Assembly (NCBI GenBank): GCA_000004985.1
Contig: GG738909.1
Source: Naegleria gruberi
Lineage: Eukaryota
Direction: 5' to 3' (one strand)
Length of the DNA: 64,000 bases
A model generated the notes under the pieces. The model had not been told where the DNA came from. It was given only the letters and a program-made list of their open reading frames with translations, and ran no database searches. The position numbers and the translations under genes were made by a program. Within the stretch, counting starts at the first letter, position 1. Each line of letters begins with the position of its first letter. Of this stretch, positions 61 through 50,035 are shown piece by piece.

Positions 61-405
61 ATGAAAGATTTTGGACATAAACCAAATATACAACTCTTCA
101 ATATGCTAAATATGTACTTGAATGTTGGAAATTTTGAAAAAGCTCTAGAACTGTATAAAGAATTAAGAAATCAAGCCAATATTATCACTTGCAACATTCT
201 CATATCTGGATTAACTTTGAATGGGCAGGGTAAAGAAGCTATTAGGATATTCAAAGAAATGAATATAGCCCCTAATGGCACCACATTTGCTGCAGTGTTG
301 AATGCATGTAGTCATTGTGGATTAATTAAGGAAGGATTTCAAATCTATGAAAGTATGCAAACAAATCATGGTATTGAACCAGATGGTCGGACTTTTAATG
401 TTTGA
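61..405 (+). CDS. Pentatricopeptide-repeat (PPR) protein, C-terminal fragment. The gene is probably truncated by the window start, or its 5' exons lie upstream.
   Basis: The ORF translates to about three 35-aa PPR-like repeats (NIITCNILISGLTLNGQGKEAIRIFKEM...TFAAVLNACSHCGLIKEGFQIYESMQTNHGIEPD). An in-frame stop lies just upstream of the Met, so the true start or an intron is unresolved. Confidence 0.45.
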   Translation: MKDFGHKPNIQLFNMLNMYLNVGNFEKALELYKELRNQANIITCNILISGLTLNGQGKEAIRIFKEMNIAPNGTTFAAVLNACSHCGLIKEGFQIYESMQTNHGIEPDGRTFNV

Positions 406-426
406 CAACCAACCTACATTAAAAGT

Positions 427-1905
427 TATTGTAACCTTACAAAAAAACTATTATTGGAGAGATGGTGAACTTTGCTATTGTGGTAATTTCCCGCACTTTC
501 TATTTTCATTTTTCAACAACAAAAAAAACAAATCAAACAATTATTTAAATAATAATCTAAAACAATTGATAAGAAAGAAAATGTGTACTAATAATAATAA
601 TAATAATACTCTCACTGGTAAATTAATCATGAGAAAGAACAAGGAAGAAAGTATTGAAAAGGTTTTCCAATTAATTAATTTCGGAGGCTTGAATGAATCT
701 GTTAGAGAATTTGTTCAAGATTTGTCATCTGCTACTTCTTCTGATGAAGTGTTATTATCCACTTTCAAGATCAAGGCTATTGTTCCATCTTCTGAGAAGA
801 GAAAAACAATTTATATAATTAATAATGAAAATGATTTTTCTGAAATGATGAAATTAATTCAAGAAATTCCACAAGATAAACCAATTCTTTTCAGAGTAAT
901 GAAGAAGAAATTGAATCATGAAAAGAAGGAAAGAAAGGAAAAGAAAGAAAGAAAGGTCAAACTTCAATTGACTGAAGAACAATCTCAAAGTCTTTCCGAA
1001 AAGAAGCAACAAGTTGAATTATTGAAAGATGAAATTAAGATGAAGAAGGAACAAATCAAGACTATCAAATTTGAAATGAAATCTTTGAGAAAGTCATTCC
1101 ATCATGTCAATGTTAGCATTGACTCAAATGTTCCATCTACTATTAAGTCATCTCCAAACAAGGAAGAAAGACTTAAACTCAAACTTGAAAAGAAGGAAGA
1201 AAAGAAAGCTTTCAAATTGGAAAAGAAGTTACTCAAAGCTCAATACAAGCTTGAAAAGATTGCATTGAAGAAGCAAAGAAAGCAACAAGGAAATACTTCT
1301 ACTCAACCAGAAACTGTTTCAACTACCACAACTTCTAGTGAACCAACTGTTCCAATTAACGTACCTATTGTTGAACCAGTAATTGTTACTGTACCACCAG
1401 TTCAACAAGTAACAACTGAACCAGTTTCCAACAATGATGAGATTGTCACTCCAACTGTTGATGCAAGGCTCTTGTTGAAACTCCAAAAAAAGGAACAAAA
1501 GCATGCTTTGAAAATGGAAAAGAAACTTGAAAAACAAATAATCAAAGCTCAAAGAAAATTGGAGAAACAAGGTCAAAAGCAAGAGAGAAAGGAAAGAAAA
1601 TTGTTAGAAAAGCAACAAGTTACCACTCCTTCTCAAAATTAATATTAGTTTAGAATAATTTTAACAACTATCATCAGAGAACTATTCATCAATCGTAATT
1701 TCTCCCTCCACATTTGTTGTGTCTGAGAGAATGAATTGTGAAATAGATTTTACTGAGATAGTTTAATTGCACCAGTCAATCATGATATAGCTGGATTTAA
1801 GGATCATGAAACAAATCTAAACAATATCTTGTAAATAACAAAATAAATCAATGTTACACAATTGTATGGCAAGTTTTCTATTTATTGTGGGACTATTGTA
1901 AATAT
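427..1905 (+). repeat. Copy A of a roughly 1.5-kb segmental duplication. It is inverted relative to copy B at 30225-31714.
   Basis: About 95% nucleotide identity over 5' flank, CDS and roughly 260 nt of 3' flank, by eye alignment of reverse complements. The copies differ in (AAT)n length (6 vs 8 Asn codons) and a few substitutions. Confidence 0.8.
581..1642 (+). CDS. Lys/Glu-rich coiled-coil protein (about 353 aa) with a possible PB1-like N-terminal fold. This is duplicated gene copy A.
   Basis: ATG at 581 (MCTNNNNNN...) is in frame with track ORF 347..1642. The upstream extension of the track ORF is probably not coding. A near-identical paralogue lies on the minus strand at 30488..31555. 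Confidence 0.6.
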   Translation: MCTNNNNNNTLTGKLIMRKNKEESIEKVFQLINFGGLNESVREFVQDLSSATSSDEVLLSTFKIKAIVPSSEKRKTIYIINNENDFSEMMKLIQEIPQDKPILFRVMKKKLNHEKKERKEKKERKVKLQLTEEQSQSLSEKKQQVELLKDEIKMKKEQIKTIKFEMKSLRKSFHHVNVSIDSNVPSTIKSSPNKEERLKLKLEKKEEKKAFKLEKKLLKAQYKLEKIALKKQRKQQGNTSTQPETVSTTTTSSEPTVPINVPIVEPVIVTVPPVQQVTTEPVSNNDEIVTPTVDARLLLKLQKKEQKHALKMEKKLEKQIIKAQRKLEKQGQKQERKERKLLEKQQVTTPSQN

Positions 1906-7481: not shown

Positions 7482-9043
7482 ATGAAGGTATTGAAAAGAT
7501 GGATCAAGATGATACCCTCCGAGTCTTCCAATCAATGTGAATGTTGTTGTACGTTTGATAGTAGCAAGGGAAATAGTAAGAGTGTTCTTCCGGTGATGGA
7601 AAGCACTTCCAGTGCATCTTGTTATCGAGTCTCCTTTGATGATATGTTGTGTGAAGATGTCATTGTTATAATTTGTTCCTTCTTGGGAGCAGAGGAGTTG
7701 TGGAATAATACTAGAAGGGTGAATACGAGTTTTAGAAATCAAACAATGAAGGATAGATTGTGGAAGGAACTGTATCATTTGAGGTGGGGCAATTTGAATG
7801 AATCTCTTGTTGTCAATTCATGTGTCTATCATCAGCAGATTGAGGCATCAATTCCTTGGTGGCAGATATACATGCAAAGGTTTGTACTGTTTTTCACTAT
7901 CTTGTTAACAAATTATCTTTTGATTTTTCACATAGACACAAATGGTTATCGTTCGAGTTTAATACATTGGAAAGAAAGTGTCCAACACTGAATGTGATGG
8001 AGGAACTGTTCTGCTCTGTGAATTGTCTGGAAAGTGGGATGGCATTCTATGAGAGATTACACTCACTTGGCAAAATCGCAAGCGAATGTGGTCTCCACTT
8101 GATTTCACAGCAACAAACAAAGAATACCAAGTCACAAGCTTCCACCAATCCACTGTATACAGTCCCTAAATCCAATGTTGAAGAATGCGTCATGTTTTGT
8201 AAACTATTCCTCAAGGCCTATTATGGAAAAGCAACAAGTTATGTTCAAGGTCCCAGCAGACTTTTCTCTGCCTTACTAAATTTGCAAGTGATCTTTTTAC
8301 TAGTCCAATCGTATTCTATAAGTGGAGAATACGACAAGACAATTGCCTACTCGACAGAGTGTTTGGATGGCATCCACACTATTAAGCAACAATACTCATC
8401 AGAATCGACAAGCTCTGATGAGCTTATGATGAGTAAGATTGAGGAAAAGTGCATCTTCTACAGAGGTTACTCATCCCACAAGTTGGGACTCTTCACTCAA
8501 GCAGAGAGGGATCTTGAGGTGGCAGAATCCGTGTACTCCGTTTCATCATGTGCACAAGAAGAGTACTGCTCCCCAATAAGAGAAGGTACCATTAACAATT
8601 CGAGAAAGTACTACCACCTCATGAATATTCAATTCACACTCATTAATAACCATATCAAACTGAAACAATTCCAACAATCTTTAGAGTATTTCATCAAATT
8701 GATTTCACTCATGAGAAGTGCCACAGATAGCCAGCAAATCATTGGAAAGTCTTCCATAACCATTGAATCAATGGATGAGAAATCATGGAACCTACTCAAT
8801 TTGTGGTTTCCTGGATTGCCATACTTTTTCCTTGCTGAATTTCTTTACAAACAACAGGACTACTTGTCCTCCAACATTCTCTTTGAGAAATATAGCAACT
8901 ATGAGCAAGGAAGAAAGCTTTCCGTGCATAAGCATCAAAAACAAACACCACCATCCAATCCTTCCAAAGATAAGCAATTGGTTCATGCCATGAGCAGAAT
9001 TAATCAAATAAATTCTGTCATCCAAAGTGATCAAGAATATTGA
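7482..9043 (+). CDS. F-box protein. Model is join(7482..7879,7936..9043).
   Basis: F-box motif VIVIICSFLGAEELWNNTRRVNTSFRNQTMKDRLWKELYHLRWG. A 56-nt intron (AG|GTTTGT...CATAG) joins track ORFs 7482..7991 and 7856..9043 in phase. Confidence 0.65.
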
Positions 9044-9972: not shown

Positions 9973-10044
9973 TCCCGTGTAGTCCAATGGCTAGGATACC
10001 TGGCTTTCACCCAGGAGGTCCGGGTTCAATTCCCGGCATGGGAG
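9973..10044 (+). tRNA. tRNA-Glu (anticodon TTC)
   Basis: Cloverleaf: acceptor TCCCGTG/CATGGGA, anticodon loop CTTTCAC, T-arm GGTTCAATTCC. Confidence 0.85.
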
Positions 10045-10578: not shown

Positions 10579-10754
10579 TTATATTGCTTCATTCTCAATA
10601 ATAAACTTTCCAAAGTAAGCAAAGCAGTTGTTGAAATTACCCAATCTTCAAGATTCTCCGGATTACTAAACTCAATAAAAGACAACAACTCTCTTCTCCA
10701 ATTTCACAAAGTTGCGCTTTTACGAAACGAAAAAAAGTAAGAACGGAGCAAATA

Positions 10755-12988
10755 ATGAAACGAGTCTCTCGAATTGGGATTGAAGGAGAGCAGCAACAAG
10801 AACCTCAGCAACGTCGACAACAACAACCACAAACATCAACAACAGAATTAGCATCATCATGTCCGAACCTACATGTATTAGTACAGCACCAACACCAGCA
10901 CCATAATCCAGAGAAGTATCTTGCTGTTACTACATGTACTAATCTTCATACTAAAAGTCCTTCTTCTTCATCGTCATCAACATATGAACATGAGCATCAC
11001 ACACCAGTAACAAACATTGTCATGCAACAAGCAACAATATCGTTACCTTCTTCACCAGTTGTGAATAACGAATCATCTTTACCATCAACATGTTCAGCAA
11101 GGATAACATTACATCCCATCTCATGTAAACGTTGCAAAAGTAGACATACTAGATGTGATAGAGTCTTACCAGCATGTAGTTATTGTTTAAAGAACAATTT
11201 CGAATGCATGTATGAGACTCCAAAAAAGTTAAGGAAGAATTTCAATGCAGAGTTTGTCGATCTGAATGAGAAGACATCAAGTAGCATGCATGCATCAATC
11301 ACACATCCACAACAACCCAAGTCCAAGTATAAGGTCTATAAGTTCAAGTTGAATACCAAAACTAAAGCTGAAGATGAGGAACCAATGGAAGAATGTGAAA
11401 AATATTGTGTAATTGATGATAAACCAATGTCAGCAAGGAAATTAGTGGAAGAACATTCTCATGTGATGGTGATGGTGATGGTGATGGTGATTCCCATAGA
11501 GAAAATGCTACTTTTGAGTTTAGAAATGAAATCAGACTCTTTGCAAAGAACTTTCTTGAATCATCATTGGATTATTATTCGAAACATATTTCGTAAGTTG
11601 AAGTATTTGATTGGAAGAAGTAGTTACCAAGTTGTATATATGGAAGGTTTGGGAATGACATTATGACAAGGGCAGATGTGTTGACTTTGTTGGACTTGAC
11701 AAACTCGGAAAGTTTACAATTATTCCCAGATGATTTGTTAGCACTAATGTATGCCTCACAAGCATTGATTCTGTATTTTAAGGAAGAATGGCGAGAGGCA
11801 GAGGAATACTACAACAAGTGCATTCAAATATTGGAAGATGAAACCGAATCAAATAGGCTTCTTTGTCTTTCTACCACTTTTGAGAATAGGACAATGTTTT
11901 TCACATCGAATAGAATGGATTCTCAGTCTCTGTTCTTGATAGGAACTAGGTTAATATTGTGTCAGTACAAATTGTCGATGGGAGATTTGAAAGAAGCTGT
12001 AAAATTTGTTAGATTGGCAGATGTCATGCTGGATGAAAGGTTTCCTGTATTTAAGGAACAAAGTTTTTTACCAATCAATGCTAATGAAATACCTCAAAAT
12101 CTATTTGATGGAATATCAAAGGAGGAAATTCTAATTATCAAAAAGAGGATTCATTGTGGAATGCTTTTGGATGAATTGAAATTCACACTGGAAAACCTAA
12201 AAGAATACATACAACCTGAATCAATGGTTTCCTCTCCACTTTTCAATAATCAATCATTCATACTGAAAGAAAGTAGTACTTTCCAATTTTCTTCATTTGT
12301 GAATAGATTTGTCTTTGGAAATTCAATAGATATCAGAGGTAGATGTAAATATGAACTGCTGTGTTTGTTGCAGTCCCCTAATGTGATTTTTAGGAATCAG
12401 ACTAATGTACCCTTCTTAATAATAGGAATAGCTGAGAATAATGTGAAACATTTGGAAGAAGAAGCTTTGGAACAATTTGGAATTGGAAAAGTACAAGCTA
12501 TTTCACTGAATGAATCATCAAGTCTAGATTTAAACGAGTTTAATCAAGTAGTATTCGTGTTACAGAAAATATACTTGACTAGTTGCAGTCTGCTTGTTCT
12601 CCACGAAATAATAATCAACAGCTCCCAACAATTTACACAACAATGTGATAGTGAAATTGTTGAAAAGTGTAAAATATGGAGGAGTGCCTTTGCAGACGAG
12701 CTTAGTGATTATTATGCACTACTACCAACAGAAACAGTAAATATTTGCTTATTGGTTGTGGCTGTGTTCGTGGTGGCAAACATTCATGCTGACCTGATTC
12801 GAAGAGAGCTGCTCAACAAAACTCCTCCGCCCGCGTTACTTGTGCGTAGAATGAGGAATGATTTTAGATTGCTCTCACTTTTAAAGAGAAAGTTTTCCAA
12901 CTGGTTTGGAAGTTATCATAATAAGTTGTGCGAGAATATAGAAAACTTATTGAACGAAATTGCAATACTTAATAAAGAAAATTTATAA
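10755..12988 (+). CDS. Zn(II)2Cys6 binuclear-cluster transcription factor. Model is join(10755..11592,11676..12988).
   Basis: Zn2Cys6 motif CKRCKSRHTRCDRVLPACSYCLKNNFEC. An 83-nt GTAAGT...GCAG intron joins two track ORFs in phase. Includes a Gln-rich N-terminus and a (GTGATG)5 repeat coding VMVMVMVMV. Confidence 0.65.
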
Positions 12989-15985: not shown

Positions 15986-18900
15986 ATGACATCTCTCAAT
16001 GTTAATGTGTTTGACGATAGAGGTTCAAACAGTTCTCAAAGTAATTCGAGGGTGCTGCTCTCTCCACCTCAGGGAGCCAACAATTACTTACTAATTCCAA
16101 CCAGTAACTATGCAGGATCATCAGTATGTTCCTCTGACAGACATTCCAAAACTGACATTTCAGGTTCTGAAGTTAATGCGGTAACAAAACTGAAGAACTC
16201 GACTTTGGAGTTTGTACTCTTCATACAAGACAACCAAGTGAAGGAGGGAATCTATGGTTATGTGATAACCTTGTTGATTCACTTGTACATGTTTTGGATT
16301 GGAATTTTTCTACCAAATCTTGGACCAGAAATGATGTACGGAGATTGGGGAACATGGATTTTCTCAGTACTCAACTATGCTATTACTCTCTCATTTGAAA
16401 GGATCCCTTATAAGGGAGGTATTGTATTGGCTTTTATTGGAGTAGGTATTGTATTGGTATTTGTAATTCTATTGATCTGGACAATCTTTGCCTACAAGAC
16501 AACCTCCCAACATTTAAAGAACTCGAGAAGAGCTATTGCCATCTTTTCCAAAGTATTTCCATTCATATCAGTACCTCTCTTGTACTTGATGACATTCTCT
16601 CTTGATTGTAATTATACAGTAAGCTCATCAAATCTGAATAGATTTGAATTCTATTCCCATGAGGTGATCCAATGCCACGATACTAGCAATATTATATTTG
16701 TGGTGGTAATGATCTTGGCCATCCTGTTATTGATTATACTCAATGTATTCTCCATGCTCATTGTACCAAACTGCCATCCTCAAAATATAGCTCCATTTGT
16801 GACCGATAATCCAGTTTTCATGAGCTTGTTAGTTGCCTTCAATCTGTGGCAACTCTTTTTACACTTTATCATTCCAACACAATACTCTTTTATGAGAGCT
16901 ATTGTTCATAGTGTTGGATCTATTATTTTAATTATAATTTTTGCCAAGCTGATTCCATTCATTAGAAGAATTGAGAATAGTATTGTATTTGGTTGCCTGT
17001 TGGCTAGATTAGCTTCGAGTATTGGAGCTATTGTAACTTCTATTGTAAATAACCCATCCCTATCAAAGATACTGCCATCGGTGGATAATACACTTGGTGT
17101 TGGACTTGCAGGTCTAACTATTGGTTTGATTATTATTGGTTTTGTGCTTGGTTTCTCCCTTATGGAATTGTATACGAGATTTATTGTGAGATCTATTAGA
17201 AACTTTGTTCTGGAATGTATTCAATCAGATAATGATGAAACAAATCTAGATTCCAAAGAAACTGAAAAATACATTGAGAAAGAAGCACAAATTATTTATC
17301 AACAGTTGGTTGAGTCAAGAAAATTAAGGCACCTTAGAATATTCTTTAAATTTTCTATGAAATTCAAAGAAAAATATCCAACGGAAAAATCAGAAACGCC
17401 CACACAGCACAATCTACTCGATATTTATATTTGTATTGCTCTGATTAAGGGGTTCTCTTCCAATAACCAATTAGATAATGAGATTATCCTTCTCTCTAGT
17501 ATGATTATTGCAAATTATTTGCCAAACGAGGTCAATTCTACAACATTTGCTCAAGGACTTTTGAAGAAAGCTTTTAAAAGAAGACCATCCACTTACTATA
17601 ATTTATTAATTAGTCTAGCTCAAAAACAAGTAGAAGCAACGGTCTATCAAACCAATCCAGAGAGCAGAAACAATGTTGAAATGGCCAAGCTTATTGGTCA
17701 CTTAGAAAGAAGACAGGATGAATTACGAGCACTTCACAGAGCTTTCTGGAAGGAAATCATGCAAGAAAATATCAATCATGAAAAATGTGAATCTATTATT
17801 GTAAGGATTGGGATATTGTCTCATGAATGTGAAACTAAATTCAAGAATTTAATGCACATTTACAAAAACGACAAGACAGTTCTTCGATGTGTTGCTAAAT
17901 ATGTAGAATCTTTTAAATTCAATAAGGAAGCTGCTCAGGAATTATATTCTGAAGCAACAACAATTGAAGAAGAGGATTCCAAACGAATGAATGCCTCCTC
18001 TAAAAGAAGAATTAAAAAGAACCAAAAGAACAGAGTGCATCCTCAACAAATCAGTCACGCTTTTGAGACGTTATCTTATGGTGATGCTAATCATCATGAG
18101 GTAGAGTCCACTGTTGTAGGAGATTTGAATAACGATTTTGGTGGTGTTGAGAATAATCCAGAATTGAAGAAGGAGCTTCTGTTCAGGAATGCATTGGCCA
18201 TCTCACATAAGAATCATTCACATCTCACAATGTTTTTCATTTTCATTGTGCTATCCTTGCTAATTTTGGTTTCAACATTAGTAATGAGCTTGATGTTTTC
18301 GAATTATGTTACTGAGAGCGTACTTGTTGTGGATACTGCCTGTACACCGATTGCATCTGCTATTCGAATTGTTAGTGGAACAAGAAGTTATCAGAGCTCT
18401 CTATTGTTGTACAGTTCCAATTCATCAGCTTGGCCTTCATTATTGGCAGAATATGGCTACTCGAGCCTTTCTGAATTCAAGAAAGCTCACAAGAAAGAGC
18501 TAAGGGATAATATTGATTACTTAATTCTATTGAAAGAGCTAGCACAAACAGCCAAGTTTACCACTGATATGTACTCTGAATTTCATGAATACTACTATAG
18601 CTTTAATCAACCAAAGGCAAATACTAATGGTTTGGAAAAGATTTACAACTCTACCACAGCTATCAATATTACCATTGCAGATATTACTAATTTGGCTATA
18701 ACCTATTCAGAGCAGATTTACAAATTTGAAGATGAGGATTATCTACATACTTTCAGCAGTTATCCTTTCATGATACTATTCAACAATAGGAATATTATGA
18801 CAGCAGCTTATTCTTCATTCTGTTACAAATTTGTTGAGGAATCCAAGAGCTATACCAAGACGATTTCCAATACTTTTATTATTTACTACTCTTGCTCAAT

Positions 18901-21257
18901 TGTTGTTTATTTTACTTACACTGCTATTTATTTGTGCTTTGCAAGATTGGATTTGTCTTTTTTGAAAAAGCTTATTGTTTTATTGGAAAAGAATGTGTCA
19001 AAGCATGAAGCAGGAAAAATGTATCACAATTTGGGCAAGCTAGTCCAAGATGACAGCTCTGTAAGACCGGCCAAGAACTCTGCTTTATACCCTAGGAATG
19101 TTGTGGTAGGATTGGGAATTGTGACAGCAATCTGTGTTGCACTCTGTGCTGGTTTGTTCCTAGCTCAAACTCTCAGCAATTCTCAATACAGCTTTGAGTC
19201 CTATGTCACCATGAGGGATGCTTTCAATGCATTAGAAAACTCCCAATATATTGCAGAAGCGATAACTGAGGAATTCATTAATTTAAAAATTGCTGACAAA
19301 ACATTTATTAATGGATTGGTTTCATCTAATACTGAGCGTTCTGAATCTATTCAAGCATCAATTAAGAAATTAAGATTCTATTGGAATATGTGCATGTATG
19401 GGTCTAATTATTACCCAGATGAGACTCTTGTGATTGGTCTTTTCGAAAAGACTGATTTGATGATAAAGGGAGAAGCTAATTGTACATTTGAAAAGATGAT
19501 TTCACATAATTGCAGCATTGGTGTTGATAAATTGATCACAACTTACACGACTAAAGCCACACAACTCACAGAAGATATTGATCTCAAATCAACAACATTT
19601 GAATCATTATTTGATGACTATTTGGTAGTTAGTTTTTTCTCTACCTATGTAAGCAATTCATTACTGTCATTTTCAGATGTATTTGCTATGGCTGCCTCTG
19701 TTCCATCAGACAAGTTGGTGATTCCATTTGCCATTCTTGGATTTTTGACTTTGTTTATATTCTCGATTGGTATTTACATGTCAATGGGAAAGTATTTCAA
19801 TTCAGTCCAACAACTGCGTCTTCTTTTCAATTATCTACCTCTAGACTTGATGGACTCAAACGAAAATATTAAGAATTATATTGTACATCATCATCTTCCT
19901 GACTCATTCTCAAACATTTTTAGAAGAAAGAAAGGTTCTTCATCAGAGGGCGACTCAAAAGTTCGAAGCATTTTGAACGCATCTGTAGATGGAGCAGTGA
20001 TGTGCAGTGGAGAGAAGGTTGATATTGAAATATTCAATCCAGCAGCTCAAAAGATATTTGGATATAATCAAACAGAAACGATTGGCAGATCATTGTATCA
20101 ATTATTTGAAAAGAATGAGCAATCGAAAATTAAAAACCTCATTGATGAAATGTTAGTGAATGCAGCAAGAGGTGATTCGAAAGGAGATTCTATTGAATTG
20201 GAATGTATCAGAAAGAATCAAACAAGCTTCCCATCACGTGTCAATATTTTTGCCACTCTTCACAATTCTCAAAGTGTTGTCACTTGTTTCATTAAGGATA
20301 TTACAACAGAGAAGAAGCATAATTCATTATTGACAGAAGAAAAGAAACATTCTGAAGAATTATTATTGAATATTTTACCAAGTGCAGTGGCAAGTAAATT
20401 GAAATCAGGAGAAACTTATATTGCAGAGAAATTCAATGATGTTTCATGTTTTTTTAGTGACATGGTTGGATTTACAAAATTAAGTACTGGAATTCAAGCA
20501 TCTGAATTGGTTCAAATGTTGAATGAAATTGTAATTGGATTTGATGATTTGACAGACAAATATAATTTGGAAAAGATTAAAACGATTGGAGATTCATATT
20601 TTTGTGTGGGTGGATTACATGGATTAAATGCACAATCAGATCATCCTGAAAGAATTTTGAGATTTTCCATTGATACATTTGATGTTTTACAAAGATTTAA
20701 TTCAAAATCAGGAAAACAACCATCTGAACAAATTAATATTCGTGTTGGTATTAATACTGGAAGTGTTATTGCAGGTGTTATTGGGAGGAAGAAATTTGCC
20801 TATGTATGTTTTTAATTTCAACATTTTAACATTTTATTGTGTAAATTGTACATTTTCAATATTTCATATTAATATATTAATTAAATAGGATTTATGGGGA
20901 GATACAATTAATACAGCTTCAAGAATGGAATCTAATTCAATTCCAGGAAGAATTCAAATTTCCAGATCAACCTATGAAAGAGTTTATGATTTGGGTTTCA
21001 CTTTTGAAGAAAGACATTTAAATGTGAAAGGAAAGGGTGAATGTATTGCTTACATGTTGCATGAGAAACATCACACTCCAGCTCTTGTTCCATCCTTCAC
21101 TGACATGTTGAGAACAAGTTTAAACATTTTACAAAAGAAAAATTCTGCAAATCTTGAAACATTGAATGAACCCAAAACACCAACAAGAAACAATGATAAT
21201 ATTACCTTGACAATCAATCAAGAAGCCTACCTATCTCCAAATAATACTTTGGAGTAA
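15986..21257 (+). CDS. Polytopic PAS-domain class III adenylyl cyclase of about 1730 aa. Model is join(15986..20803,20889..21257).
   Basis: A 1609-codon exon encodes a multi-TM N-terminal block, further TM helices and a PAS-like segment. The cyclase core FFSDMVGFTKLS...KIKTIGDSYFCVGGL...GVIGRKKFAY|DLWGDTINTASRMES spans an 85-nt GTATGT...AG intron. Both metal Asp, the specificity Lys and Asp, and the transition-state Asn/Arg are present. Confidence 0.8.
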
Positions 21258-30224: not shown

Positions 30225-31714
30225 TGCAATAGTCTCACAATAAATAGAAAACTTGCCATACAATTGTGTAACATTGATTTATTTTGTTATTTACAAGATA
30301 TTGTTTAGATTTGTTTCATGATCCTTAAATCCAGCTATATCATGATTGACTGGTGCAATTAAAATATCTCAGTAAAATCTATTTCACAATTCATTCTCTC
30401 AGACACTACACAACAAATGTGGAGGGAGAAATTATGATTGATGAATACTTCTCTGATGATAGTTGTTAAAATTATTCTAAACTAATATTAATTTTGAGAA
30501 GGAGTGGCAACTTGTTGCTTTTCCAACAATTTTCTTTCCTTTCTCTCTTGCTTTTGAGCTTGTTTTTCCAATTTTCTTTGAGCTTTGATTATTTGCTTTT
30601 CAAGTTTCTTTTCCATTTTCCAAGCATGCTTTTGTTCCTTCTTTTGGAGTTTCAACAAGAGCTTTTCATCAACAGTTGGTGTGACAATATCAGCATTGTT
30701 GGAAACTGGTTCAGTTGATACTTGTTGAACTGGTGGTACAGTAACAATTACTGGTTCAACAATAGGTACGTTAATTGGAACAGTTGGTTCACTATAAGTT
30801 GTGGTAGTTGAAACAGTTTCTGGTTGAGTAGAAGTATTTCCTTGTTGCTTTCTTTGCTTCTTCAATGCAATCTTTTCAAGCTTGTATTGAGCTTTGATCA
30901 ACTTCTTTTCCAATTTAAATGCTTTCTTTTCTTCCTTCTTTTCAAGTTTGAGTTTAAGTCTTTCTTCCTTGTTTGGAGATGACTTAATAGTAGATGGAAC
31001 ATTTGAGTCAATGCTAACATTGACAGGATGGAATGACTTTCTCAAAGATTTCATTTCAAATTTTAGAGTCATGATTTGTTCCTTCTTCATCTTAATTTCA
31101 TCTTTCAATAATTCAATTTGTTGCTTCTTTTCGGAAAGACTTTGAGATTGTTCTTCAGTCAATTGAAGTTTGACCTTTCTTTCTTTCTTTTCCTTTCTTT
31201 CCTTCTTTTCATGATTCAATTTCTTCTTCATTACTCTGAAAAGAATTGGTTTATCTTGTGGAATTTCTTGAATTAATTTCATCATTTCAGAAAAATCATT
31301 TTCATTATTAATTATATAAATTGTTTTTCTCTTCTCAGAAGATGGAACAATAGCCTTGATCTTGAAAGTGGATAATAACACTTCATCAGAAGAAGTAGCA
31401 GATGGTAAATCTTGAACAAATTCTCTAACAGATTCATTCAAGCCTCCGAAATTAATTAATTGGAAAACCTTTTCAATACTTTCTTCCTTGTTCTTTCTCA
31501 TGATTAATTTACCAGTGAGAGTATTATTATTATTATTATTATTATTAGTACACATTTTCTTATCAATTGTTTTAGATTATTTAAATAATTGTTTGATTTG
31601 TTTTTTTTGTTGGTTGAAAAATGAAAATAGAAAGGGTGGGAAATTTTATTTCATTCCACAACAGCAAAGTTCACCATCTCTCCAAAAATAGTTTTTTTGT
31701 AAGGTTACAACAAC
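30225..31714 (-). repeat. Copy B of the roughly 1.5-kb segmental duplication, inverted relative to copy A at 427-1905
   Basis: Its reverse complement aligns with 427-1905, including the UTR-like flanks. Confidence 0.8.
30488..31555 (-). CDS. Lys/Glu-rich coiled-coil protein, duplicated gene copy B (355 aa)
   Basis: Near-identical to 581..1642. It has 8 Asn codons rather than 6 and a few substitutions (for example ADIVTPTVDEK vs DEIVTPTVDAR). Confidence 0.6.
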   Translation of the reverse strand: MCTNNNNNNNNTLTGKLIMRKNKEESIEKVFQLINFGGLNESVREFVQDLPSATSSDEVLLSTFKIKAIVPSSEKRKTIYIINNENDFSEMMKLIQEIPQDKPILFRVMKKKLNHEKKERKEKKERKVKLQLTEEQSQSLSEKKQQIELLKDEIKMKKEQIMTLKFEMKSLRKSFHPVNVSIDSNVPSTIKSSPNKEERLKLKLEKKEEKKAFKLEKKLIKAQYKLEKIALKKQRKQQGNTSTQPETVSTTTTYSEPTVPINVPIVEPVIVTVPPVQQVSTEPVSNNADIVTPTVDEKLLLKLQKKEQKHAWKMEKKLEKQIIKAQRKLEKQAQKQERKERKLLEKQQVATPSQN

Positions 31715-34415: not shown

Positions 34416-34533
34416 GGCTACGGCCATATCACGATGAATGCACCTCATCCCGTCCGATTTGAGAAGTTAAGCATCGTCGAGCCACATCAGTACTGAGGTT
34501 GGAGACAACTTGGGAACCTGTGGTGCTGTAGTC
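34416..34533 (+). rRNA. 5S ribosomal RNA gene, copy 2
   Basis: 118/118 identical to copy 1, followed by a TTTTTT terminator. Confidence 0.85.
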
Positions 34534-35128
34534 TTTTTTACTTTAACAGGTTTTTCAACATTAGCTGATTTTATGTTACGGTAGTCTTTTTGTCAACAAT
34601 GAAGTATTTGGTTATACCTAATTAGATGTTTTTGATGGTGATGATGCTGAAAGTCGCTTTTGAGTTTGAACTTTGTTAAACTCTTGAATGGAACCAGGCT
34701 TGAAATTTATTGAAATTAATCATTTCAACAGTTTGCATTTGAAATTTGCTTTGAATTATAATCAAGATTCTTTAATTTGTTGCTCCACAACTTGTCCATA
34801 TAATGAAATATCATGATTTGGTTGATATCAATATTTCAAGGAGATTGAGTGGCTCTTTTATAACATTCAATGATTTAAGGTTGGGAAATTTAAAACTGAA
34901 TTAATTCAGTGAACAAAGATAACGTTTGATGTCATCCTCGTTAACAAAACAAATTACAATAATAAATAATAATTGCACCACGTTACCCTTATTACTCTTC
35001 TTCCTCAAGGAGTTTTTCTATCCAATCGCGTAGAATATAGTCGGCATTCGGATACGATCGGTTTTAAGTCCCGCTCTAAGCAAGAACGTTCTATCATCAA
35101 AAAACTTCAATTTTTAAATTTAAAAAAA

Positions 35129-38929: not shown

Positions 38930-39549
38930 ATGACTGCCAGAAAAGCCTCTTCTTCCTCTAAGAAAGATTCTTATGATCACCCAAAGTACACTGACATGGT
39001 TCTTGAAGCCATTATTCAATTGAGAAAGAGAAATGGTGCCAGTTTACCAGCTATTAAGAAGTACATGGAAGAAAAGTATGAACTTCCAGAAACCTACAAT
39101 ACTCACTTGAAGTTAGCCATCAAAAAGTTGGTCGAATCTGAAAAGTTGGTCAAGGTCAAGGGTTCTTACAAGGTTGAAGCTGATTACAAGAAGTCTTACA
39201 TGAAGGAAAATAAGATTGTCCTCGAAAAGAAGGAAAGTGATGATGAAGATGAAAAGGAAGATAAGAAGGACAAGAAATCCAAGAAATCGAAGAAGGAAGA
39301 ATCCGATGAATCATCTAAGAAGAAGAAGAAGATAAAAAGAAGAAGTCTACCAAGAAGACCGAAAAGAAAAAGTCCAAGAAGGATGAAAAGACTGCTCCAA
39401 GAGTTTCCAAGCCAAAGAAGACTACCAAGAAGAACTTGAAGGAATCTGCAAAGGTTGATGGTCCAAGAACTGAATCAAGAGTCAAGAAAGCCGCTTCTGC
39501 TACTAGAACTGCTAGATCCAAGGCTAAGCAAGCTGCCAGAGATGAATAA
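38930..39549 (+). CDS. Linker histone H1, with an apparent -1 frameshift inside an (AAG)5/A-rich run at ~39317-39333
   Basis: Globular domain YTDMVLEAIIQLRKRNGASLPAIKKYMEEKY. The frame-shifted continuation encodes a typical H1 tail (KKSTKKTEKKKSKKDEKTAPRVSKPKK...AKQAARDE*) with strong codon bias. Confidence 0.7.
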
Positions 39550-43219: not shown

Positions 43220-44704
43220 TCACTCAATAAAACCATAATTTTTCTTTTTCAGTTGCTTTTTCATACGTTTCAGATACTTGTTTCCATTGTCTATTCCATT
43301 ATCATATACATTTAAATGTTTTAATTTCTTCATTTTGGATAGGTATTTCACTCCTGAATCTTCAATAAAATTCTCAGAAATATCCAGACGTGTTAAGTGT
43401 TTCAATTTAGATAAGGATTTAGCACCTTCAGTTTCAATACTATTTCTATGAACATCAAGTTCAGTCAATTTTTCCAGCTTGCTTATAGATTCAGCTCCTT
43501 CATTTCCAATTGAAATTTCAGAAATCCAAAGTTTAATCAATTGATTCAATCCACTTATTAGTTTTGCCCCCTCATCTCCTAAATTATTAGCTGATATATC
43601 TAAAAAAGTTAAATTTGTCATTTCACTAATTGATTTGGTGCCATCTATTCCTATTAAAGTTGAGTGCATATAAAGTGTTTTCAATTGTTTCATTTCACTT
43701 ATTACCTTTGCACCAGCGTCACCAATCCAGTTGTCACCAATATTCAGACTGATCAGTTGTTTCAAAGAGGTTATTGATTGGACTCCATCAACTGAAACAA
43801 TTTGTATTGCATGAGCTGACAAATTAGTTAATTGTTTCAATTCACATATAAACTTAATTCCTTCCTCATCAATTCCATTTAATCCAACACTCAGATCAGT
43901 CAAATTTTTCATTTGACTAATACATTTGCATCCTTCTGTCCTTATTTCGTTATGATCTATGTCAAGTTTTGTTAGTTGACTTAGTTCTATCAAAGATTTT
44001 ACACCACTATCATCAATACCATTTTCACTTATTTCAAGGCTTGTCAATTGTTTCATTCCAATCATTGATTCAATACCCAAGTTTGTGATCTTACACTTAC
44101 TAATATTTAGAATAGTCAGTTTTTCAAGTTTTGATAAATATTCAACAGCCTTATAACCAATATCATTATAGCCAATACTCAATTCCGTAAGATTAATCAA
44201 ATTACCAATTGATTGAGTTGCTTCCGAACTAATCACATTACTTATCAGATCAAGTTTCTTCAATTGGTCCATCTTACTAATAATTTTAGCACCATCATCA
44301 TCAATTAAATAGGAATCAAATACCAGAGTTTGCAAATTCTTAAACTTCCCAAATACCTTTAAACTTTCATTACATATTTTCGATTCCTCCGTAAAGTGCA
44401 CTCCACAAATACATTCCAAAAATTGGCTCCTTTCCATTAATTTAATTCTTTCCTCATCAATGGGCTGTTTAAATTTCAAATAAATTTCCGAACGTTCCTT
44501 GATTACTCTCATCCATTGTCTTGATATACGAGTGTAATTTTTCAAAACAAACCAATTTGAATATTTACCTCCTATAAGAAAGGAAATAATTTCAAAACAA
44601 ATGTCATCGGGAAATTCTTTAATTTCATGCTGATGACTGATTATTACTTGGTTATTCTCTTCTGTGAAGTTGGGATCAATTCCTGTTTCTCGTAATCGTT
44701 TCAT
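43220..44704 (-). CDS. Leucine-rich-repeat protein (RNI/RanGAP-like LRRs), about 495 aa
   Basis: Many 28-aa LRRs (LxxLxxLxLxxNxIgdeGak). The start is inferred at the internal Met (MKRLRETG). The longer track ORF to 44911 runs antisense through tRNA-Gln and is not credible as coding. Confidence 0.55.
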   Translation of the reverse strand: MKRLRETGIDPNFTEENNQVIISHQHEIKEFPDDICFEIISFLIGGKYSNWFVLKNYTRISRQWMRVIKERSEIYLKFKQPIDEERIKLMERSQFLECICGVHFTEESKICNESLKVFGKFKNLQTLVFDSYLIDDDGAKIISKMDQLKKLDLISNVISSEATQSIGNLINLTELSIGYNDIGYKAVEYLSKLEKLTILNISKCKITNLGIESMIGMKQLTSLEISENGIDDSGVKSLIELSQLTKLDIDHNEIRTEGCKCISQMKNLTDLSVGLNGIDEEGIKFICELKQLTNLSAHAIQIVSVDGVQSITSLKQLISLNIGDNWIGDAGAKVISEMKQLKTLYMHSTLIGIDGTKSISEMTNLTFLDISANNLGDEGAKLISGLNQLIKLWISEISIGNEGAESISKLEKLTELDVHRNSIETEGAKSLSKLKHLTRLDISENFIEDSGVKYLSKMKKLKHLNVYDNGIDNGNKYLKRMKKQLKKKNYGFIE

Positions 44705-44810
44705 TTTTTTTATTGTAAAAACAAATCGACTCTTTCGCAATAGCAGCGAGCCAAAACCAAGCCTAACCTTAATTGATGTAAGATTTACTGCCTTTTTACA
44801 ATAATGTGCT

Positions 44811-44881
44811 CGTCTCGTGGTGTAATGGTAGCATAGTGGACTTTGAATCCATTGACGGAGGTTCGATTCCTCCCGAGACGG
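44811..44881 (+). tRNA. tRNA-Gln (anticodon TTG)
   Basis: Acceptor CGTCTCG/CGAGACG, anticodon loop CTTTGAA, T-arm GGAGGTTCGATTCCTCC. Confidence 0.8.
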
Positions 44882-45237
44882 TAAACGTGGCGAGCCATAC
44901 GAATTTTGCATGTGGACGATAACTATTTTTTTACTTTCCTGGTATAGCCATTTCTTGAAATACCATTAGAATCGAAAATATTAATTGGGTTTTTTGAAAT
45001 TGTTCAGATATTTATGTAATGTACAAAAGGAATTCAAAGAAGAGGAATATTAACTTTCTATTGGAATTCTAGTGATATTTTTGAGACTTTGCATATTTCT
45101 ATTGGGAATACTATTTTGGACGCTTTTCAGTTTAACAATATCTTTAGAAATTCGTTCCTATTGCGATAAAGGAATATTCTTTATATTCATTGTATTAAGG
45201 GAAAATTGTTCATATTTCACATTGTAAGTAACTGAAT

Positions 45238-45355
45238 GGCTACGGCCATATCACGATGAATGCACCTCATCCCGTCCGATTTGAGAAGTTAAGCATCGTC
45301 GAGCCACATCAGTACTGAGGTTGGAGACAACTTGGGAACCTGTGGTGCTCTAGTC
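45238..45355 (+). rRNA. 5S ribosomal RNA gene, copy 3
   Basis: One substitution relative to copies 1 and 2 (GCTCTAGTC vs GCTGTAGTC near the 3' end), followed by a T-run. Confidence 0.85.
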
Positions 45356-45505
45356 TTTTTATATTCATTTTGACTTTTGTGAAATTAGTCTTGGTTTTTA
45401 TTCATTTAATACTTGAATTAATACTATTGATAGCTATGTAAAAAATATTTTAAAATAATTTCCTGAAACATTCATGAATAGTGTATATTTACTTTGAATA
45501 TAATG

Positions 45506-45578
45506 GGGATGTAGCTCACATGGTAGAGCGCTTCTTTAGCATGGAAGAGGTACGGGGATCGATACCCCGCATCTCCAC
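45506..45578 (+). tRNA. tRNA-Ala (anticodon AGC)
   Basis: GGGGATGTAGCTCA...TTAGCAT...GGGATCGATACCCC...CATCTCCA. It has the G3:U70 Ala identity pair, and a T-run follows. Confidence 0.85.
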
Positions 45579-48373: not shown

Positions 48374-49552
48374 CTAATTAGTGAGTGAAAAAGTGCAAAA
48401 TTTGCAGATCGAGTAAGCAAATGAGTCCAATATGCATGAAAAGGAGGATTTCTTCATGGAATTTTCAATATCATCAAGATAGGTGAGCATATCATTATCA
48501 GACCAAGGTTTGAGGAATGGCATTAACACAGTTTCAATCATTGTCTTGATTACTGATTTCTTGGAGTGGTATTCAGGAAGGAGGTGGTTGGAATGTTGAA
48601 ATCTCTTTGAAATGATGCACCAAGTACAATATCCATTCATTACTTCATCGATGGATTCAAATTGTTTGGAATTGTCTGGGTTGGAAGATTTGATTGTTTC
48701 CATTCGCTGCAATTTCTCTTTGATTAATTCCAATACTTCATTGAGGGATGACTCAAAATCTTCAACTGGGAGTTCTTTTAGTTGGCTGTATGACAAGCCC
48801 TCCTTGAATCCCTTATTCAAAATGATAAAATTGTTAACTACCTTCTTGGCATCTTTAGCGATTGAGGCAACATCATTGAACAAACTGATAATGTCACAAG
48901 CCAAGTGGTTATATTCGATTACATGATCACATGTGTCGATTTCTGGAATGCCTTTAAAGAAATTATTAATTGTAAAGAAAAGAGAGGACATTGAGTCGAC
49001 TCTTCTCTCTTCCAAAAAGGCAAGTAAGGTTTCTTCTGAGACTAGTCCATTATTTTCACATTCATTCTTTGCCTTCTCTATGAGATTGGTTCCAATAGTC
49101 AAGAATTCCAAAACCTTTCCTCTGATACCATCGAATCTACTGTCTTTGATCAGATTATAGACGAGCGTCCCCATCTTATGAGCAGGATTTGTTGCTTGTA
49201 CTGATTCACCTCTGAATATCTTGCAATGTGATTTCATCTCTTCAATAGAAATGTCTGTAATCTTCTCGTCACATGCATCATCAACAATGGAAATGTATGC
49301 AACCAAAGGAATTACAATCTCTGCAAATAACTTTTCGTCTTCTTTGACCATAGTATTAAAGCAGAGAACCAACCACTGTGAAAGATCATATGATCCACAG
49401 TATGTGTACTTGTTGTCTCTGAATTGTAAATCGTTACCAATTAGATTGCTGAAAAGGAGAGAACAATGTTGATCAGATTTCTTCTTATCCAAAGGAACGA
49501 AAATTGCTGACTTGATTTGATTAAAATTGACTTGGGCTTGCATTTTGGTTGT
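48374..49552 (-). CDS. Microbial-type (class I) terpene synthase, about 392 aa
   Basis: Asp-rich DDxxD motif IVDDACDE and a downstream NSE/DTE-like NDVASIAKD motif, in an all-helical-looking protein. The start is inferred at the internal Met MQAQVNF. Confidence 0.55.
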   Translation of the reverse strand, partial: TTKMQAQVNFNQIKSAIFVPLDKKKSDQHCSLLFSNLIGNDLQFRDNKYTYCGSYDLSQWLVLCFNTMVKEDEKLFAEIVIPLVAYISIVDDACDEKITDISIEEMKSHCKIFRGESVQATNPAHKMGTLVYNLIKDSRFDGIRGKVLEFLTIGTNLIEKAKNECENNGLVSEETLLAFLEERRVDSMSSLFFTINNFFKGIPEIDTCDHVIEYNHLACDIISLFNDVASIAKDAKKVVNNFIILNKGFKEGLSYSQLKELPVEDFESSLNEVLELIKEKLQRMETIKSSNPDNSKQFESIDEVMNGYCTWCIISKRFQHSNHLLPEYHSKKSVIKTMIETVLMPFLKPWSDNDMLTYLDDIENSMKKSSFSCILDSFAYSICKFCTFSLTN

Positions 49553-49768
49553 TGTTGTGTGAAATATATTATTGTTTGGTTGTTTTTTTTTGTTGTGAAA
49601 TACAGCTATCTGATCGTGTGTTAATAATAGCTTAATGCAAAATATTTTCACCCACTTTTGCTTGAAGCAAGTTTTTTTGCGACGGATGGTATCTTGCTAC
49701 AAATATCTTTGCTTCAAAACCACCCGAAAATATTCAATCATATGTTGTTTAAATTTTATTAACCAGAT

Positions 49769-49859
49769 GGTGAGTTGGTCGAGTGGTCTAAGACGACACG
49801 TTAAGGTATGCCTAATACCGTGTTCCGCAAGGGCGTGGGTTCAAATCCCACACTCATCA
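49769..49859 (+). tRNA. tRNA-Leu (class II, anticodon AAG) with a probable 11-nt intron at 49807-49817
   Basis: Acceptor GGTGAGT/ACTCATC, D-arm GTCGAGTGGTCTAAGAC, anticodon stem ACACG/CGTGT enclosing TTAAGG plus insert, long variable arm, T-arm GTGGGTTCAAATCCCAC. Confidence 0.7.
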
Positions 49860-50035
49860 ATTTTTTATCTCATCTCAAGCTGATCAATTTGAAAAGTGAA
49901 GTATTCAGAATATTGTATTTTATAGAGCAACTGAACTGAATGAAGAATAATGATATTAGTGTTCGTAGGTGATTGGTTTCAAAGATTAAGAAAGGTGAAA
50001 TATTCCAAAATGAAAAAACTTAAATACTTTTTACT

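Follow-up and report, generated by a model that had tools for sequence, protein, structure and literature searches.

A frame break, most likely of technical origin, in linker histone H1 of Naegleria gruberi

The DNA analyzed here (hereafter "the window") is a stretch of 64,000 nucleotides from contig GG738909.1 of the Naegleria gruberi assembly. It has a G+C content of 33% and contains eukaryotic genes with short GT..AG introns. On its plus strand, it carries a gene for a linker histone in which the reading frame changes partway through the coding sequence. From ATG to TAA, this gene measures 620 nt; that length is not a multiple of three, and the gene therefore either lacks one base or has two too many. 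Its parts are as follows, with frames denoted by the position of the first base of a codon modulo 3.

38930 to 39549, + strand: whole H1 gene, from the ATG at 38930 to the TAA ending at 39549 (620 nt)
38930 to 39316, + strand: 5' coding part in frame ≡2, running from the N-terminus MTARKASSSS through the globular domain and a mixed acidic/basic linker to ...EESDESS (the orthologues have the N-terminus MTARKAS, and the public protein is identical)
38978 to 39172, + strand: winged-helix globular domain GH1, residues 17–81 (Pfam PF00538)
39316 to 39318, + strand: TAA in frame ≡1 that bounds the tail frame upstream, from the reading of the ORFs
39317 to 39345, + strand: zone in which the frame changes from ≡2 to ≡1, delimited by the scores of repaired proteins against the orthologue P0001
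39319 to 39549, + strand: C-terminal tail in frame ≡1, (EEEED)KKKKSTKKTEKKKSKKDEKTAPRVSKPKKTTKKNLKESAKVDGPRTESRVKKAASATRTARSKAKQAARDE, including the stop TAA at 39547–39549
39346 to 39439, + strand: wrong-frame (≡2) stretch of the public gene model, ...SLPRRPKRKSPRRMKRLLQEFPSQRRLPRRT, ending at the TGA at 39437–39439

The ORF that opens at the ATG at 38930 (≡2 mod 3) begins MTARKASSSSKKDSYDHPKYTDMVLEAIIQLRKRNGASLPAIKKYMEEKYELPETYNTHLKLAIKKLVESEKLVKVKGSYKV... and is closed by the TGA at 39437–39439, before which it reads ...KKKKKIKRRSLPRRPKRKSPRRMKRLLQEFPSQRRLPRRT. Frame ≡1, read from 39319, gives EEEEDKKKKSTKKTEKKKSKKDEKTAPRVSKPKKTTKKNLKESAKVDGPRTESRVKKAASATRTARSKAKQAARDE, and its last residues are ...SKAKQAARDE*. 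These two frames are open together at 39319–39436; the third frame contains many stops. The break zone is made up of a purine-only (AAG)5-A run (AAGAAGAAGAAGAAGA), a T at 39333, and then AAAAAGAAGAAG. The string AAGAAGAAGAAGAAGATAAAAAG occupies 39317–39339, and the longest run of A in the zone has five members.

Does this interrupted gene encode a linker histone? Residues 17–81 matched the Pfam family Linker_histone (PF00538) with 76.3 bits, compared to a cutoff of 22.4 (E 2.2e-21), and solved globular domains of H1.0/H5 (structures such as 6hq1, 5nl0, and 1hst) matched at E values of 1e-9 to 1e-6. The basic tail expected of the H1/H5 proteins emerges after repair of the frame: the last 71 residues of the restored frame-1 tail have a net charge of +21 and a pI of 10.8. 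The deposited frame instead yields a different basic tail of 40 residues. Naegleria H1 shares the winged-helix globular domain with the H1/H5 family and, like it, is built of three parts, the last a basic C-terminal tail. Whereas the tail of animal H1 is rich in Ala, Pro, and Lys, the Naegleria protein is unusual in having a long spacer of about 50 mixed acidic and basic residues after the globular domain, followed by a short, conserved terminal module rich in Lys, Arg, Ser, and Thr. We identify the gene as the linker histone H1 of N. gruberi (locus NAEGRDRAFT_53171); it is apparently the only H1 gene of the organism. The winged helix of the H1 globular domain binds to the nucleosome near the dyad and, judging from what is known of the family, the basic C-terminal module of Naegleria H1 would bind to linker DNA and neutralize it.

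The frame-2 translation of 38930–39439 is identical to the public protein from this locus (EFC38260.1, XP_002671004.1, UniProt D2VY45), a "predicted protein" of 169 residues. To which of the two frames, then, does the C-terminus of H1 belong? Three close orthologues carry the globular domain and a frame-1-type tail in one ORF. The first, P0001, derives from a metagenomic Naegleria; it has 204 residues, is 77% identical to the N. gruberi protein, and is encoded at locus L001 by an uninterrupted gene of 615 nt. The second, P0003, is also from a metagenomic Naegleria (192 residues, 56% identical; locus L002, an uninterrupted gene of 579 nt), and the third is the H1 orthologue of N. fowleri, CAG4709913.1 (P0163), with 200 residues and likewise no interruption. 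The P0001 locus is syntenic with that of N. gruberi: its upstream ORF of 258 residues is 86% identical to the upstream ORF in the window. From the N-terminal MTARKAS.. through the globular domain to the mixed-charge spacer, all three proteins correspond to N. gruberi H1, with which they also share a C-terminal module, ..APRV.KP..KKKNLKESSKVEGPRT..R.KK....AR..R.K.RD..R... While their genes are uninterrupted, the 620-nt N. gruberi copy requires a one-base repair.

The conservation of the tail extends beyond these close relatives. The frame-1 tail of N. gruberi aligned with those of P0001, P0003, P0163, P0013, P0015, P0017, and P0039, and the consensus of the conserved C-terminal module is ...APRVSKP..KKNLKESxKxxGPRTxxRxKKAxxxARTxRxKxR.... 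An exhaustive, profile-free search showed that distant relatives, with identities of 35–39%, keep the C-terminal pattern LK...(12–14 residues)...R.KKA...AR..R.K.R. The tails of H1 proteins are usually conserved in composition only, and the sequence-conserved Naegleria module is thus unusual. The end of the module, (N/P)LK(E/S)..(V/I)......R.KKA...AR..R.K.R, is encoded at 39400–39546 and is conserved in sequence in the same seven proteins, one of which (P0039) bears the JGI label "histone H1/5".

Analyses at the nucleotide level point in the same direction. When P0001 was compared to the window with tblastn, two HSPs were obtained, one in frame 2 at 38930–39388 (E 1e-71) and the other in frame 1 at 39319–39546 (E 8e-30). 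In the region in which both frames are open (39319–39436), codons were scored by the usage of the gene itself, which gave log-odds of 71.6 bits in frame 1 compared to 7.2 bits in frame 2; in this region, frame 2 resorts to the rare codons ATA, CTA, CCG, AGG, CTG, GAG, and AGC. A comparison of the last 51 codons of frame 1 between N. gruberi and L001 resulted in a dS of 0.62, a dN of 0.13, and a dN/dS of 0.20, while the identical DNA compared in frame 2 had a dN/dS of 1.09. At the local base composition, a stretch of 76 stop-free codons such as that in frame 1 would arise by chance with a probability of about 0.002. By the measure of these alignments and substitution rates, H1 ancestrally continued into the frame-1 tail, which is under purifying selection, and the true protein is predicted to have about 205–206 residues.

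We used P0001 as a yardstick to locate the break. Hybrid proteins that switched frames at successive codons scored 804–811 against it for switches at 39317–39337; for shifts after 39338, the score dropped steadily, falling to 706 at 39434. The introduction of all one-base insertions and two-base deletions in 39310–39344 gave 68 distinct repaired proteins, and the best 40 of the 68 scored 804–818 against P0001, a spread of at most 14 points. Single-event repairs at 39316–39344 all lay within 804–818, and those within about 39316–39345 fit the orthologues equally well, placing the lesion in the run with no single base that can be named as its site. A DNA alignment made with MAFFT was arbitrary within this low-complexity part of the H1 gene. 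One added base would lead to a protein of 206 residues, for example by a reading of TCT AAG GAA GAA GAA GAA GAT AAA AAG... or by the extension of the A5 run to six A; the removal of two bases, for example the AT at 39332–39333, would lead to one of 205 residues. The first atypical codon of frame 2 is the ATA at 39332, and codon usage mildly favors a shift before it. Such a shift would lengthen the acidic patch (EEEED), a feature comparable to SEDEKKEKKK in P0001.

Much of what an earlier note on this DNA had proposed is in keeping with these results. Its assignment of the globular domain and acidic linker to frame ≡2 and of a tail ending ...AKQAARDE* to frame ≡1 agrees with the ORFs described above, which run from the ATG at 38930 to the TGA at 39437–39439 and from 39319 to the TAA at 39547–39549, respectively. 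It had also held that the H1 frame breaks in an AAG/A-rich run, and indeed a tail of the frame-1 type is present in the orthologues, and one indel within the run is enough to restore the ORF. The interval that it gave for the switch, 39317–39333, captured the run; its exact limits were too narrow, as homology allows a slightly wider zone of about 39316–39345, and 39333 is the single T. Likewise, one inserted base does restore the H1 reading frame as claimed, although the product would have 206 residues and not the 205 stated, a length that belongs to the two-base deletion. The description of the tail as K/A/P-rich must be abandoned: the abundant residues of the restored tail are K, S, T, and E, and only 9 Ala and 3 Pro occur among its 77 residues.

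What caused the break? Overall, this feature is most likely an ordinary single-base frame break in a known gene, with a technical origin. Our preferred explanation, which we consider probable though far from certain, is that the missing base reflects a consensus error in the draft assembly. In the deposited sequence, the repeat at 39317–39345 would lack one base (or, with lower likelihood, have two too many), putting the tail out of frame. The most likely cause would be that the draft consensus gives a wrong count for a short run (G/GG, AA/AAA, or A5/A6), and the automatic gene model would then have carried on in the wrong frame. Because AAG repeats become AGA repeats when shifted, the result would be a plausible-looking but spurious arginine-rich tail.

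Several considerations bear on this explanation. The reference sequence of N. gruberi NEG-M is a Sanger draft of roughly eightfold coverage. In drafts of this type, low-complexity runs are expected to contain an occasional single-base consensus error, and such errors are more common than a frameshift that has become fixed in a conserved single-copy gene. Of the ORF breaks inspected in the window, only that in H1 lacks a credible splice site; the two others have GT..AG boundaries. The complete lack of secondary decay fits either an artefact or a very recent event. On the other side of the ledger, the runs are short: with a longest A run of 5, the zone is no classic hard case for Sanger chemistry. 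The fact that H1 is dispensable in several unicellular eukaryotes also counts against a technical origin. We sought an independent copy of the break site as well. A scan of JGI metagenome contigs for the exact flanks across the site produced no match, and a protein-guided scan of metagenome contigs retrieved only a 44%-identical relative, L003. Exact look-ups in the assembly index with the frame-2 product, the protein P0002, and both neighboring ORFs returned no contig and hence no independent N. gruberi copy.

The main competitor of a consensus error is a real lesion in NEG-M, fixed or present in one assembled allele, that arose by a recent one-base deletion in the repeat; we regard it as possible, but the less probable of the two. 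In this case, the protein would have a normal globular domain followed by a 40-residue arginine-rich neo-tail, and the conserved C-terminal module would be lost. The deposited sequence itself displays the lesion, slippage in short runs is the commonest kind of real indel, and NEG-M is a long-cultured axenic line in which a real lesion could have arisen. Moreover, neither a second, intact copy of N. gruberi H1 nor a model of it from an alternative haplotype emerged from our protein searches. The frame-2 continuation has 40 open codons, with a predicted pI of 12 and a net charge of +20 in its 40 residues, and DNA binding might persist; as the shifted tail is still so strongly basic, a real lesion could be tolerated. 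Against a real lesion stands the condition of the frame-1 tail: its 76 codons are free of stops, its codon bias is undiminished, and its dN/dS is 0.20. With no sign of decay in that tail, a real lesion could only have occurred very recently. Such a lesion would also strip a module that is conserved down to relatives of 35–39% identity from what is apparently the only H1, and consensus errors in draft assemblies are a priori more frequent.

That the deposited sequence is correct, and that NEG-M lives with an arginine-rich neo-tail on its only H1, is therefore a proposition that we entertain tentatively. If the lesion were real, some full-length H1 might nonetheless be made through a low level of slippage at A AAA AGA. 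The locus would then constitute a natural experiment on whether the function of the H1 tail depends on its charge composition rather than on its sequence. Even so, it would amount to a mildly interesting, charge-preserving frameshift in a histone tail and not to a new kind of biology.

Programmed recoding, by which the genome would be correct and the frame would be changed during expression to yield full-length H1 all the same, is very unlikely. It could take the form of a -1 shift of the ribosome (e.g., by slippage of tRNA-Lys in the P site on A AAA AGA at 39334–39340) or of polymerase slippage on the A/G run. The passage from frame 2 to frame 1 does call for a -1 shift, the permitted zone includes the partial heptamer A AAA AGA, and tracts of lysine codons promote ribosome sliding. 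However, programmed -1 frameshift sites consist of an X XXY YYZ heptamer and a downstream structure. No such heptamer occurs in the zone in the zero frame, which offers only the partial matches A AAA AGA at 39334 and A AAA AGT at 39367; the longest A run is again only 5. Pseudoknot-free folding of the 124 nt from the site onward yielded a minimum free energy of -11.1 kcal/mol, compared to a mean of -10.4 for shuffled sequences (z = -0.29). The site contains no zero-frame stop or rare codon to pause ribosomes, AGA being the preferred Arg codon, and the three close orthologues are all single ORFs with no conserved recoding site. With no slippery heptamer, downstream structure, or conserved site, we reject programmed frameshifting. 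Put differently, N. gruberi H1 resembles the known programmed -1 sites (A AAA AAG, as in E. coli dnaX) and cases of poly(A)-track sliding in its -1 direction, its A-richness, and its many lysine codons, but it has neither the canonical heptamer nor a run of at least 11 A, and it lacks both a stimulatory structure and conservation. Frameshifting in the +1 direction, of the Euplotes or yeast type, was discarded as a candidate: the +1 frame has many stops, and only a shift of -1 or +2 would join the two parts of the gene.

Less likely still is an old, decaying H1 pseudogene with its function covered by an intact paralogue elsewhere, for which the frame break alone speaks. The gene has one lesion only, its tail evolves with a dN/dS of 0.20, its codon bias is intact, and synteny with the orthologous locus is preserved. 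The single lesion, the dN/dS ratio, and the intact codon bias together exclude an old pseudogene. We found no second N. gruberi H1 in the window (by tblastn), among the hits of the word-indexed search with the full-length protein, or among the ten best non-orthologous representatives whose names were looked up. These results also bear on the alternatives raised in the earlier note: a base-call or assembly error and a genuine frameshift both stand, whereas its notion of a pseudogene accompanied by a working paralogue gains no support from the sets just named.

The least likely reading of all is a short spliceosomal intron that bridges the frames. Short introns with the same effect on the frame probably do occur in the window, where two were considered:

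7880 to 7935: putative intron of 56 nt with the donor GTTTGT, T-rich, recognized by its GT..AG boundaries only
20804 to 20888: intron of 85 nt, GTATGT..TAG, T-rich; its removal restores the cyclase motif FAY|DLWGDT

In the H1 gene, the sole GT..AG candidate of compatible length (≡2 mod 3) is 39345–39403, with 59 nt. Its donor, GTCTAC, is unlike the window's donors GTATGT and GTTTGT, and its sequence is purine-rich and of the coding type, not T-rich. Further, it aligns codon for codon with orthologue coding sequence, including the conserved APRV, and the orthologues have no intron at this position. As for insertional RNA editing of nuclear mRNA, we know of no precedent in this lineage.

We return, then, to a consensus error as the preferred explanation, and to its effect on the public gene model. 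The last 35–40 or so residues of that model (...IKRRSLPRRPKRKSPRRMKRLLQEFPSQRRLPRRT) are most likely a wrong-frame, arginine-rich artefact, as judged from the comparisons above. The wrong-frame end of NAEGRDRAFT_53171 had no counterpart in any orthologue that we aligned, and the conserved C-terminal pattern is wholly absent from the public N. gruberi protein. The 169-residue model would thus have about 35–40 wrong residues at its end and lack about 75 real ones, including the conserved C-terminal module. Such a faulty model affects the mapping of peptides and modifications, analyses of tail composition, and alignments. Comparative studies of chromatin draw on the proteome of N. gruberi, which serves as the reference species for free-living heteroloboseans. 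The main use of the present finding is consequently the correction of the H1 model from 169 to 205–206 residues, which is easily made, although the practical value of the finding is modest.

Our literature search located no paper citing the accessions of the NAEGRDRAFT_53171 locus. The annotation to which this model belongs has been put to use: one study searched histone peptides against it (doi 10.1101/2021.11.30.470311), and the supplement of that study names PXD031991, a data set of N. gruberi histone proteomics. The portion of the supplement available as readable text contains no H1 peptides of N. gruberi.

Other features of the window deserve brief description. The 85-nt intron at 20804–20888 splits the catalytic domain of a large adenylate/guanylate cyclase, encoded at 15986–21257, which has TPR domains of the TmcB type and PAS domains. 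Two open stretches, 10635–11663 in frame 2 and 11624–12985 in frame 1, overlap by 40 nt, the first encoding a Zn2Cys6 binuclear cluster domain of the fungal type; a short intron between the two, rather than a frameshift, is suggested by a GTAAGT at about 11594. The window also contains the following RNA genes.

1999 to 2117, + strand: 5S rRNA gene
34416 to 34534, + strand: 5S rRNA gene
45238 to 45356, + strand: 5S rRNA gene (Rfam scores of the three, 98–105 bits)
9973 to 10044: tRNA-Glu (TTC)
44810 to 44882: tRNA-Gln (TTG)
45505 to 45578: tRNA-Ala (AGC)
49768 to 49860: tRNA gene of 93 nt

Each of the three 5S rRNA genes resides in a repeat of about 155 bp, the copies of which are 96–98% identical; they are dispersed among protein genes and do not form a tandem array. 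ARAGORN did not assign an anticodon to the 93-nt tRNA gene, the last of the four tRNA genes, probably owing to an intron. The tRNA-Gln gene overlaps the end of an ORF on the opposite strand (43220–44911), and the start of that ORF therefore probably lies further in. An inverted duplication of about 1.5 kb, with 95.9% identity, relates 423–1898 to 31716–30227, and its arms are about 28 kb apart. It spans most of the ORFs at 347–1642 (+ strand) and 30488–31555 (- strand), neither of which contains a Pfam domain. Finally, the ORF at 48374–49651 (- strand) has a weak match to the C-terminal domain of terpene synthase family 2, with 26.7 bits compared to a cutoff of 23.7.
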